Shown here: in pieces, positions 15,898-62,225 of the stretch
How positions within the stretch are numbered: position 1 is the first letter of the stretch
How the letters are laid out: each line of letters opens with the position of its first letter
Assembly: GCF_988243305.1 (NCBI RefSeq)
Contig: NZ_OZ547136.1
DNA: 64,000 nucleotides
Direction: 5' to 3' (one strand)
Translations under genes and position numbers: made by a program
Notes under the pieces: generated by a model
Database searches by the model: none
What the model saw: only the letters and a program-made list of their open reading frames with translations
Told to the model about the DNA's origin: nothing

Positions 15898-15909
15898 CAC
15901 GCTACCGCC
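15898..15909 (-). promoter_or_regulatory. ops element (RfaH recruitment site) within the JUMPstart leader upstream of wza
   Basis: Minus strand reads GGCGGTAGCGTG (plus strand cacgctaccgcc), matching the ops consensus GGCGGTAGnnTG, about 180 nt upstream of the wza start. Confidence 0.8.
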
Positions 15910-16377
15910 CCTGGCTTTTTAGCTACCAATACACTGATTTAGCTTAATTTTTAAAACCCTCTCAACATACAGTCGTTGATGAGAAAGGGTTATTGCGGAA
16001 ATTAACTTCCGAATATAAGGTGACATTATGGTAATTGAATATTGGCTCTCCAATAATGCAGGAGGAAGTGTTACAGCTAACGGAATAGCAGGCAAGGTAA
16101 CAATTCGGCAATTGGCTATTTTTAAGAATTATATTAAGTGTCATTCAACATGGTTTTTAGGAGTTTCTTTAGGTTGACAATATTTAATATAGTGTCTCCA
16201 CATGCGATATTTCTTAAATAATGTTTTATTATTACCACTTTTAATTCAGGGATAATGTGAGGTTATAAACCTCAAATAATATGAGATAAATAGTGCTGCA
16301 ACATTGCATTTTTGCCCCGATTTATCCATGATCGAATTGTGACATTTGTCATACAACGAATAGGTTTTGTACTTACT

Positions 16378-31561: not shown

Positions 31562-31742
31562 AAGAAATCCTTTCTTAGAGAATTATTGAGGTCCGGTATC
31601 ATACCGATTGCAATAATGAAATAAGAGCAAACGAAGAAACTTTCAGAATTAGGCCCGGCGGCGCAGAAAATTTTGCTATTCGCCTCGCAAGAACGGAGAG
31701 CCGTCGATTGACACTAAGGGCGGAGTGACATAATTTCAGGAG

Positions 31743-31878
31743 TGAGGGTTAGGGAGAGGTTTCTCCCTCCCCCTGGTGTTCTTAGTAAGCCTGGAAGCTA
31801 ATCACTAAGAGTATCTCCAGTATGATGACGTGCTTCATCATAACCCTTTCCTTATTAAAAGCCCTCTTCTCCGGGAGA
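31743..31878 (+). ncRNA. sibA: Sib antisense sRNA (antitoxin), copy 1
   Basis: Sigma70-like promoter ttgaca (31708-31713) and taattt (31731-31736); transcript fully covers the ibs ORF on the opposite strand; terminator hairpin gccctcttctccgggagagggttt. Ends approximate. Confidence 0.55.
31772..31831 (-). CDS. ibsA: Ibs type I toxin peptide, copy 1 (19 aa, variant)
   Basis: Minus-strand ORF MMKHVIILEILLVISFQAY with SD-like ggaaagg upstream; E and Q replace hydrophobic/Pro positions seen in the other two copies. Confidence 0.55.
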
Positions 31879-32077
31879 GGGTTTCCCGTTTCAGCGTCCC
31901 GCTGAAATCGTCGGCTTACCTCCTTTCGCCCTGAATGCAGTCTATCGCTAACGCGTGAACAAAATAGTTTCCTCTGTGATTATTGCGTAACGACTCGCAA
32001 AGAATATTTGCTGGCAGGATCGCAGACTGAAAAGCCTGCAGATTGACAATCTTATCGTGAAGGCATAATTTCAGGAG

Positions 32078-32215
32078 TGAGGGTAGAGCGGGGTTTCCCC
32101 CGCCCTGGTAGTCTTAGTAAGCCGGGAAGCTTATGACTAAGAGCACCACGATGATGATCCACTTCATCATGACCCTTTCCTTATTTAAGGCCCCTTCCTC
32201 GGGAGGGGCTTTCCC
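32078..32215 (+). ncRNA. Sib antisense sRNA (antitoxin), copy 2
   Basis: Promoter ttgaca (32043-32048) and taattt (32066-32071); terminator hairpin ccccttcctcgggaggggcttt. Ends approximate. Confidence 0.55.
32114..32170 (-). CDS. Ibs type I toxin peptide, copy 2 (18 aa)
   Basis: Minus-strand ORF MMKWIIIVVLLVISFPAY. Confidence 0.6.
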   Translation of the reverse strand: MMKWIIIVVLLVISFPAY

Positions 32216-32404
32216 GTTTCAGCGTCCCGCTGAAATCGTCGGCTTACCTCCTTTCGCCCTGAATGCAGTCTATCGCTAACGCGTGAACAAAATAGTTTCC
32301 TCTGTGATTATTGCGTAACGACTCGCAAAGAATATTTGCTGGCAGGATCGCAGACTGCAAAGCCTGCAGATTGACAATCTTATCGTGAAGGCATAATTTC
32401 AGGA

Positions 32405-32545
32405 GTGAGGGTAGAGCGGGGTTTCCCCCGCCCTGGTAGTCTTAGTATGCTGGGTAGCTAATCACTAAGAGCACCACGATGATGAGTAGCTTCATCATGA
32501 CCCTTTCCTTATTTATGGCCCCTTCCTCGGGAGGGGCTTTCCCGT
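32405..32545 (+). ncRNA. sibB: Sib antisense sRNA (antitoxin), copy 3
   Basis: Promoter ttgaca (32371-32376) and taattt (32394-32399); terminator hairpin ccccttcctcgggaggggcttt. Ends approximate. Confidence 0.55.
32442..32498 (-). CDS. ibsB: Ibs type I toxin peptide, copy 3 (18 aa)
   Basis: Minus-strand ORF MMKLLIIVVLLVISYPAY. Confidence 0.6.
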   Translation of the reverse strand: MMKLLIIVVLLVISYPAY

Positions 32546-44418: not shown

Positions 44419-45780
44419 ATGTTTAAACCGGAACTCCTTTCCCCGGCGGGAACGCTGAAAAATATGCGTTACGCTTTCGCTTATGGCGCAGATGCTGTTT
44501 ATGCGGGCCAGCCGCGTTACTCCCTGCGTGTGCGCAACAACGAATTTAACCACGAAAATCTTCAGCTCGGCATCAATGAAGCCCACGCGCTGGGGAAAAA
44601 GTTTTATGTCGTGGTCAACATTGCACCGCACAACGCCAAGCTGAAAACCTTTATCCGTGACCTGAAACCGGTGGTGGAAATGGGGCCGGATGCGCTGATT
44701 ATGTCCGATCCGGGGCTGATTATGCTGGTGCGCGAGCACTTCCCTGAAATGCCGATCCATCTCTCAGTACAGGCTAACGCCGTGAACTGGGCGACGGTGA
44801 AATTCTGGCAGCAAATGGGTCTGACCCGCGTGATCCTCTCTCGCGAACTGTCACTGGAAGAGATTGAAGAGATCCGCAATCAGGTGCCAGATATGGAGAT
44901 CGAAATCTTCGTTCACGGCGCGCTGTGCATGGCCTACTCCGGTCGCTGCCTGCTCTCTGGCTATATCAACAAGCGCGACCCGAACCAGGGCACCTGCACC
45001 AACGCCTGCCGCTGGGAGTACAACGTCCAGGAAGGGAAAGAAGATGACGTTGGCAACATCGTGCACAAGTACGAGCCGATTCCGGTGCAAAATGTTGAGC
45101 CGACGCTGGGTATCGGCGCACCAACTGACAAAGTGTTTATGATCGAAGAAGCCCAGCGTCCGGGCGAGTATATGACCGCGTTTGAAGATGAGCACGGCAC
45201 TTACATCATGAACTCGAAAGATCTGCGCGCTATCGCCCACGTTGAACGCCTGACCAAAATGGGCGTGCATTCGCTGAAAATCGAAGGCCGTACTAAATCT
45301 TTCTACTATTGCGCACGCACCGCACAGGTTTACCGTAAAGCTATCGATGACGCCGCTGCGGGCAAACCGTTCGATACCAGCCTGCTGGAAACTCTGGAAG
45401 GTCTGGCGCATCGTGGCTATACCGAAGGTTTCCTGCGTCGTCATACTCACGACGATTATCAGAACTACGAATACGGTTATTCAGTTTCTGACCGCCAGCA
45501 GTTTGTTGGTGAGTTTACCGGTGAGCGCAAGGGCGACCTCGCGGCGGTAGCGGTGAAAAATAAATTCTCCGTTGGCGACAGCCTTGAGCTGATGACGCCG
45601 CAAGGGAACATTAACTTTACCCTTGAGCAGATGGAAAACGCCAAAGGCGAAGCAATGCCGGTCGCACCGGGCGATGGTTATACTGTGTGGATCCCGGTCC
45701 CGCAGGATCTTGAGCTAAATTACGCGCTGCTGATGCGTAATTTCTCCGGGGAAACCACGCGTAACCCACACGGTAAGTGA
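44419..45780 (+). CDS. yegQ: U32-family peptidase-like protein (tRNA hydroxylation, TrhP)
   Basis: 453-aa ORF MFKPELLSPAGTLKNMRYAFAYGADAVYAGQPRYSLR... with conserved Cys cluster. Confidence 0.9.
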   Translation: MFKPELLSPAGTLKNMRYAFAYGADAVYAGQPRYSLRVRNNEFNHENLQLGINEAHALGKKFYVVVNIAPHNAKLKTFIRDLKPVVEMGPDALIMSDPGLIMLVREHFPEMPIHLSVQANAVNWATVKFWQQMGLTRVILSRELSLEEIEEIRNQVPDMEIEIFVHGALCMAYSGRCLLSGYINKRDPNQGTCTNACRWEYNVQEGKEDDVGNIVHKYEPIPVQNVEPTLGIGAPTDKVFMIEEAQRPGEYMTAFEDEHGTYIMNSKDLRAIAHVERLTKMGVHSLKIEGRTKSFYYCARTAQVYRKAIDDAAAGKPFDTSLLETLEGLAHRGYTEGFLRRHTHDDYQNYEYGYSVSDRQQFVGEFTGERKGDLAAVAVKNKFSVGDSLELMTPQGNINFTLEQMENAKGEAMPVAPGDGYTVWIPVPQDLELNYALLMRNFSGETTRNPHGK

Positions 45781-45812
45781 TTAATTTCGATTATTTTTCC
45801 CGGATGGAAAAT

Positions 45813-45834
45813 TCTTAGAAACCGATCACATACA
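45813..45834 (+). promoter_or_regulatory. Candidate CRP site (class II position) for cyaR
   Basis: tcttagaaaccgatcacataca with a perfect TCACA right half, centred about 41.5 nt upstream of the inferred CyaR 5' end. Confidence 0.45.
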
Positions 45835-45864
45835 GCTGCATTTATTAAGGTTATCATCCGTTTC

Positions 45865-45951
45865 GCTGAAAAACATAACCCATAAAATGCTAGCTGTACC
45901 AGGAACCACCTCCTTAGCCTGTGTAATCTCCCTTACACGGGCTTATTTTTT
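45865..45951 (+). ncRNA. cyaR: CyaR (RyeE) Hfq-dependent sRNA
   Basis: gctgaaaaacataacccataaaatgctagctgtaccaggaaccacctccttagcctgtgtaatctcccttacacgggcttatttttt matches my recollection of CyaR, including the terminal hairpin and U-tract. Confidence 0.85.
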
Positions 45952-46109
45952 ATGCATAGGCCCTATCCCTGGTCACCGTCTTCCATTGACCACATCGATA
46001 GAATCTCCCTTCATAGCACGATGCCTTTCACGTAACGGCATCGTGCTCGCACTAGTTCCGGCTAAGCACAACCAGAACGCGCATGTTTGACGCTTACCAA
46101 AAAATATTC

Positions 46110-46427
46110 TCACTCTCCACATTTGAATGTCAGACGAGCGACGCCATGTAATCCTGCACCTTCTGTCTTCAGGTCAACTATCTGCATTTTTTTGCCCTGA
46201 GTAACACAGAAATGAGCTGCATCATTTTTTACTATATTTTCTGCACCAGATATTCTGCCCCTGGCTAAAGAAGCTTCGGCTTCGGTGTAGTATTGGTTAT
46301 CGAGTTTACGCTGAATATTACTTTTATATGCAAGACCAAATTTACCGATACTTGTCTCATCATTATGTACAGCACACCCAGACATAAGAAAAACACTAAT
46401 TAATGATATAGCAGCTATCTTTTTCAT
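46110..46427 (-). CDS. yegR: Small lipoprotein of unknown function
   Basis: Track ORF is 125 aa; trimmed to MKKIAAISLISVFLMSGCAVHND... (105 aa) with signal peptide and lipobox LMSGC. Confidence 0.85.
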   Translation of the reverse strand: MKKIAAISLISVFLMSGCAVHNDETSIGKFGLAYKSNIQRKLDNQYYTEAEASLARGRISGAENIVKNDAAHFCVTQGKKMQIVDLKTEGAGLHGVARLTFKCGE

Positions 46428-62094: not shown

Positions 62095-62225
62095 TTGCTC
62101 CTGCCATAACGTGAAGAAGCAATGACCTGGTGGTCCGTGACTTCCCTACGCTGGCATTATCCAGATCAGGTGATACGGGTATTTCTCAGCCTTCACGCAG
62201 AAGGGCACCCCGAGTCGTTTGATTG
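62095..62225 (-). promoter_or_regulatory. TPP (thi-box) riboswitch in the thiM leader
   Basis: Minus strand reads ...ACGACUCGGGGUGCCCUUCUGCGUGAAGGCUGAGAAAUACCCGUAUCACCUGAUCUGGAUAAUGCCAGCGUAGGGAAGUCACGGACCACCAGGUCAUUGC..., containing the conserved CUGAGA and ACCUGAUCUGGAUAAUGCCAGCG thi-box elements. Confidence 0.9.

Follow-up and report, generated by a model that had tools for sequence, protein, structure and literature searches.

A TCACA motif stands upstream of a small RNA gene in a 64,000-nucleotide stretch of DNA (RefSeq assembly GCF_988243305.1, contig NZ_OZ547136.1; the whole of this stretch is called the window below), and this raises the question of whether the motif is one half of a cAMP-CRP site that activates the RNA from a class II position or a chance match. 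A preliminary description, made from the sequence alone, had favored the former: it named the RNA CyaR, regarded its terminator as recognizable, placed the TCACA half-site about 41.5 nt upstream of the inferred 5′ end, and called the left half-site weak.

Identity of the RNA and its chromosomal setting

When the whole window was compared with Rfam, the model RF00112 (CyaR_RyeE) matched positions 45863-45948 of the plus strand with 100.7 bits and an E value of 6e-19; the gathering score of this model is 47, and the match spanned its full length (positions 1-85 of 85). Comparison with E. coli K-12 MG1655 revealed zero differences across 45760-45952, an interval that covers the CRP site, the −10 hexamer, the RNA, and the terminator, and the annotated K-12 ncRNA gene cyaR (b4438; 2167114-2167200) corresponded to window positions 45865-45951. 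The 5′ end used throughout this work, G 45865, was taken from that K-12 annotation, while the curated 3′ end, 45951, is exactly the end coordinate given in the preliminary description. The covariance-model score, the match to the K-12 gene without a difference, and the syntenic position behind yegQ/trhP all identify the RNA as CyaR, and the name proposed for it earlier was correct.

The source of the DNA is an Escherichia coli chromosome, as a 1.2-kb query around cyaR matched 5423 of 5426 complete E. coli genomes, with 99.4% identity in the best matches. The gene was found in 5421 of the 5426 genomes, and promoter and gene together were at least 99% identical in 5369 of the 5425 matching E. 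coli records. An annotated strain with 99.4% identity displayed the order yegQ/trhP (+), a gap without annotation, yegR (−), and yegS (+), and cyaR adjoins yegQ/trhP on the downstream side of the latter in this strain and in K-12 alike. The terminator of cyaR was the only one detected in 45600-46200, and none was found between yegQ/trhP and cyaR; therefore, yegQ transcripts probably read through cyaR and end at the cyaR terminator. The distance from the yegQ/trhP stop codon to the CRP 22-mer is just 31 nt (45780-45812).

Outside K-12, the RefSeq/PGAP annotation of the E. coli genomes inspected carries no feature under the cyaR match, an omission that the present analysis brings out. A 67-aa ORF that overlaps cyaR (45887-46090, +) is unannotated in the near-identical strain and in K-12, and it was treated as spurious.

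Table 1. Features of the cyaR region, in window coordinates; positions in brackets are relative to the annotated 5′ end
Feature	Position	Strand	Basis
cAMP-CRP site, 22 bp (ttcTTAGAaaccgaTCACAtac), predicted	45812..45833	+	sequence; conservation
Promoter-distal half-site TTAGA	45815..45819 (−50..−46)	+	3/5 match to TGTGA
Promoter-proximal half-site TCACA	45826..45830 (−39..−35, center −37)	+	perfect match; consensus GA in front
−10 hexamer TATCAT	45852..45857 (−13..−8)	+	exactly 21 bp (45831-45851) after TCACA
CyaR (RyeE) sRNA, 87 nt	45865..45951	+	RF00112; identity to K-12 b4438
Hairpin 1, AGGA/UCCU stem, ACCACC loop	45901..45914	+	minimum-free-energy fold; Rfam consensus structure
Intrinsic terminator	45916..45951	+	terminator scan; fold
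Terminator loop and closing pairs, AATCTCCCTT	45926-45935		
Phage P2 attB core, unoccupied	45925..45952		28/28 identity to P2 attP

Geometry of the cyaR promoter

As summarized in Table 1, a CRP-like dyad precedes the −10 hexamer of cyaR. Its 16-bp core (45815-45830) matches TGTGA-N6-TCACA at 8 of the 10 core positions and is centered at 45822.5, that is, at −42.5 when +1 is 45865. The perfect half, TCACA, occupies the place of a −35 element. The other half, set apart from it by the spacer aaccga (45820-45825), retains G7 and A8 of TGTGA and has lost G5 and T6, with T at position 5 and A at position 6. The distance of about 41.5 nt that had been assigned to TCACA holds approximately for the dyad as a whole, whose center would lie at −41.5 were the start at 45864, and does not hold for TCACA itself, which is centered at −37. 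With the 5′ end annotated in K-12, the site does not fall at a nonactivating position.

Between TATCAT and the annotated 5′ end there are 7 nt (45858-45864). A consensus scan around cyaR returned no sigma-70-like promoter on the plus strand; the −35 candidate CATACA (45829-45834), located 17 bp upstream of the −10 hexamer, shares 3 of 6 bases with TTGACA, and no −35 element is conserved in this region across genera. A CRP-like dyad, a center near −41.5 over the −35 region, and a weak or absent −35 element are among the features of a class II promoter, and these three were found here. The label of class II is applied on the basis of this measured geometry; De Lay and Gottesman (2009), Papenfort et al. 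(2008), and Johansen et al. (2008) are said to have placed a class II site at cyaR.

Two other candidates were rejected on inspection. An FNR site was discarded, given that the right half reads TCAC, which is of the CRP type, not TCAA, while the left TAGA fully fits neither regulator; a sigma-E promoter was discarded as well, given that GGAAAAT at 45806 is not followed by a TCAAA-like −10 element at 15-17 bp. Farther upstream, a T-rich block, (G)TTATTTTT(T)C, was noted at 45790-45799 (about −75 to −66). It is conserved within Enterobacteriaceae, and in the other families the terminator of the upstream gene sits nearer the CRP site instead of this block, which could be an UP-element-like sequence or the site of another regulator.

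Frequency of CRP-like matches in the window

Allowing up to 2 mismatches to TGTGA-N6-TCACA, we counted 21 matches in the window, versus 24.7 ± 4.9 expected from dinucleotide-preserving shuffles, and one of the 21 is the cyaR terminator itself. The match to the CRP motif, taken alone, is thus at chance level, and because of this count it was not used as evidence. For a given start, the chance that a match would lie no more than 1 bp to either side of the class II position was estimated as 3 × 24.7/64000, or about 1e-3, and a positional coincidence of this order is suggestive only. By position and by conservation, the latter being decisive, the cyaR CRP site is nevertheless real, as detailed below.

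Conservation of the promoter in Enterobacterales

The seed region ACNAGGAACCACCTCCTTNGCC was scanned in one genome per species, which gave at least 120 loci; those listed come from Enterobacteriaceae, Yersiniaceae, Pectobacteriaceae, Morganellaceae, and Erwiniaceae and represent about 38 genera. From these, 111 distinct upstream sequences were anchored on TCACA without gaps, and they were also reduced to 40 genus-level groups. TCACA is present in 111 of the 111 listed promoters, and of the two bases in front of it, the G is kept in 111 and the A in 110. The distal bases T, T, A, G, and A and the A that follows them were found in 107, 104, 111, 111, 110, and 111 of the 111 listed promoters, respectively. 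In all of the listed promoters, TCACA and the −10 hexamer are separated by 21 bp without a gap, the T and A of the hexamer at +26/+27 occurring in 111/111, and T1, A2, A5, and T6 of the hexamer are invariant. At the level of genera, AGAA, GATCACA, and TA..AT were each found in 40/40 groups, and among the 40 groups listed Rahnella alone has CAAGA in place of TTAGA.

The information content of the conserved blocks is about 2 bits per position, as against well below 1 bit per position in the 21-bp spacer and less than 1 bit in the flanks. Because these blocks have stayed fixed whereas the sequence around them has become nearly random, the alignment indicates purifying selection on both half-sites, on their helical phasing, and on the −10 hexamer. 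The conserved RNA start GCTGA follows the −10 hexamer after 6 nt in some genera and after 7 nt in others, which puts the dyad center at −41.5 or −42.5.

The labels of two of the loci attracted attention. One contig, assigned to a "Collinsella sp." MAG, contains the CyaR seed pattern of enterobacteria and was probably binned wrongly, and the cyaR promoter of a locus labeled Serratia marcescens agrees base for base with the Symbiopectobacterium type, not with the Serratia type.

The alignment also bears on the position of the start site. The Rfam model begins 2 nt upstream of the annotated start, at 45863, a point in favor of a true start that differs from the annotation, with CRP acting from a position other than that of class II, either in a class I-like manner or as a repressor. 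We regard this as very improbable, since the sole conserved −10-like hexamer is the one located 21 bp after TCACA in all 111 listed promoters, the conserved RNA start follows it at 6-7 nt, and the curated K-12 5′ end agrees; moreover, class I activation would depend on a −35 element, which this promoter lacks.

In the literature, cAMP-CRP was reported to activate cyaR transcription directly (PMC3050693, PMC5861431). In Yersinia pseudotuberculosis, CRP binds the cyaR regulatory region in a gel-shift assay in a cAMP-dependent manner (PMC4376681), and a crp mutant of this species is without CyaR (PMC4376681, PMC11795201). Could the dyad at cyaR still be a chance match, with a constitutive promoter or one dependent on another factor driving the gene and CRP exerting its effect indirectly? 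Motif matches of such quality do occur at chance frequency in the window, but the invariance of the half-sites and of their spacing to the −10 hexamer in the approximately 38 genera listed, amid scrambled neighboring bases, renders this extremely improbable, and so do the lack of a −35 element at the cyaR promoter and the direct CRP activation and binding already reported (PMC3050693, PMC4376681).

We therefore consider, with a probability of about 0.93, that the region consists of cyaR and a class II cAMP-CRP-dependent sigma-70 promoter. The earlier proposal of cAMP-CRP activation from a class II position is borne out by the center at −42.5, by a 21-bp distance like that of galP1, and by the literature on direct activation. 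The points against this reading are the chance level of the motif, a distal half devoid of G5 and T6, and a center one base off the canonical −41.5.

The invariant distal half-site

The left half-site is weak, as previously described, when it is judged against the consensus, but not when it is judged by its evolution: TTAGAA is non-consensus and yet as invariant as the perfect proximal half among the 111 listed promoters. If any weak half-site sufficed, the bases of the distal half would be expected to drift, so that this invariance needs explaining. In TTAGAA, an A replaces the T at the position that normally forms the primary DNA kink of CRP. The element may represent a composite or tuned operator, where either a second regulator is involved or a low-affinity, low-bend geometry sets a cAMP threshold; we hold this to be unlikely.

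In the form of this idea that involves a second protein, TTAGAA...GATCACA would be a CRP site whose distal half is also read by another regulator, such as CpxR or OmpR. Consistent with this, the distal A6, G7, A8, and A9 are invariant in 110-111 of the 111 listed promoters despite two non-consensus bases, and a CpxR-like box with 3 mismatches (45807-45821) overlaps the left half. Both proteins have been named as cyaR regulators (PMC8313858, PMC5861431, PMC12266141), CpxR as a reported repressor and OmpR as a recently proposed activator (PMC12266141 for OmpR). However, with 3 mismatches in 10 the CpxR-like box is a very poor match, and it has several neighbors of the same low quality, as a scan of 45740-45960 with GTAAA-N5-GTAAA yielded only 3-mismatch matches; in addition, the GAAAC-like stretch varies across genera along with the spacer. 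Orthologous CRP sites are, moreover, reported to retain non-consensus bases as a general phenomenon. Dual reading of the distal half thus seems doubtful to us, and a second regulator would add to class II control by cAMP-CRP without excluding it.

RNA structure, terminator, and P2 attachment site

The 87-nt RNA was folded into a small hairpin and the terminator, with a minimum free energy of −19.8 kcal/mol (z = −3.0 versus shuffles). Hairpin 1 carries the C/U-rich stretch CCACCUCCU, which we take to be the seed that pairs with the Shine-Dalgarno regions of the targets. The layout is that of the CyaR family, in which a hairpin with the conserved C/U-rich AGGAACCACCUCCUU is followed by an intrinsic terminator and a U tail. 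The terminator proved to be as recognizable as had been stated: in the terminator scan, an 11-bp stem (45916-45943) with the loop AUCUCC was followed by TATTTTTT, and the U-rich tail UAUUUUUU occupies 45944-45951. In sRNAs of the CyaR type, the terminator module binds Hfq.

Across genera, the terminator stem covaries through compensatory changes and the loop is invariant, the loop region AAUCUCCCUU being identical in 101 of the 102 distinct CyaR 3′ parts listed, which cover about 38 genera. Because the loop is conserved more strongly than its stem, these data suggest that it may have a role beyond termination, e.g., as a second C/U-rich pairing region or as a protein-binding site. Earlier work described CyaR as a transcript of about 87 nt that binds Hfq and represses mRNAs including that of ompX (PMC2515195, PMC5861431).

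The 3′ half of the terminator, together with the U-run (45925-45952), is identical at 28 of 28 positions to the attP core of phage P2 (24355-24382 of AF063097.1, annotated with Int, attP, and IHF). By this identity, the 3′ end of cyaR is an attB site of P2, and the site is empty in the window. P2-type prophages occupy "cyaR RNA," a listed P2 insertion site, in E. coli W and B (PMC3032704).

Other structured RNAs were also detected in the window. Three tandem SIB antitoxin RNA modules (RF00113; 142-146 bits) are located at 31708-31856, 32043-32185, and 32371-32513 on the plus strand, whereas in K-12 the interval from yegL to mdtA holds just two, sibA/ibsA and sibB/ibsB, a difference of copy number in a type I toxin-antitoxin array. 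Further Rfam matches above the gathering score were algC RNA (1275-1324, −), naRNA4 (nucleoid-associated ncRNA 4; 1411-1481, +), a JUMPstart element (15898-15936, −), and a TPP riboswitch (62126-62222, −).

Proposed mode of cyaR regulation

In the model that we favor, under scarce glucose and high cAMP, a CRP dimer would bind the dyad at 45812-45833, where it would overlap and substitute for the missing −35 element and would recruit and activate RNA polymerase. At class II promoters, AR1 contacts alpha-CTD, AR2 contacts alpha-NTD, and AR3 contacts sigma region 4; by virtue of this class, the upstream CRP subunit at cyaR would be expected to make the AR1-alpha-CTD contact and the downstream subunit the AR2-alpha-NTD and AR3-sigma region 4 contacts. 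The polymerase would use TATCAT as the −10 hexamer and start at G 45865, and the 87-nt transcript would end at its own intrinsic terminator and bind Hfq. The C/U-rich loop region of hairpin 1 would then pair with the ribosome-binding sites of target mRNAs, among them those of ompX, nadE, luxS, and yqaE, leading to their repression. Within this model, the identity of the RNA, the geometry of its promoter, the absence of a −35 element, and the order-wide selection come from the present analysis, and the CRP dependence and the targets come from the literature.

Both cyaR and its CRP-activated promoter are already known, with descriptions dating from 2008-2009 onward, and the locus here has the K-12 sequence, so its discovery value is small. 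What the analysis adds is a comparative quantification, in which the half-sites, their spacing, and the −10 hexamer are invariant in the approximately 38 genera listed, and it illustrates that sequence alone can suffice to recognize a genuine sRNA and a genuine regulatory site.

Comparison with known systems

The closest counterpart is K-12 cyaR (ryeE, b4438) itself, which is identical over 45760-45952 and has the same upstream neighbor, yegQ/trhP. The two loci differ only downstream: in K-12, the P2 remnant PR-X (ogrK, yegZ) starts inside the cyaR terminator, whereas yegR directly follows here.

Among other promoters, galP1 was compared with that of cyaR. The gal region, as read from K-12, consists of TAATTTATTCCATGTCACAC, cttttcgcatctttgttatgc (21 bp after TCACA), TATGGT, tatttc, and A. 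Transcription from galP1 starts at that A, and with its CRP site centered at −41.5, it is the archetypal class II promoter. Like cyaR, galP1 lacks a functional −35 element and has a perfect proximal TCACA that is followed after exactly 21 bp by the −10 hexamer, and the distal half is poor in both promoters (TTTAT in galP1 and TTAGA in cyaR). The −10 hexamer and the start are separated by 7 nt in cyaR versus 6 nt in galP1, and this one extra base accounts for a nominal center of −42.5 in the former versus −41.5 in the latter. The two further differ in that galP1 possesses an extended −10 element (TG) where cyaR has GG, and in that gal also contains an overlapping promoter, P2, and GalR operators.

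Spot 42 (spf) resembles CyaR in being a small Hfq-dependent RNA under the control of cAMP-CRP, by which carbon status is converted into posttranscriptional control (PMC8916003). In contrast to its activation of cyaR, CRP represses spf, and the two RNAs share neither sequence similarity nor targets.
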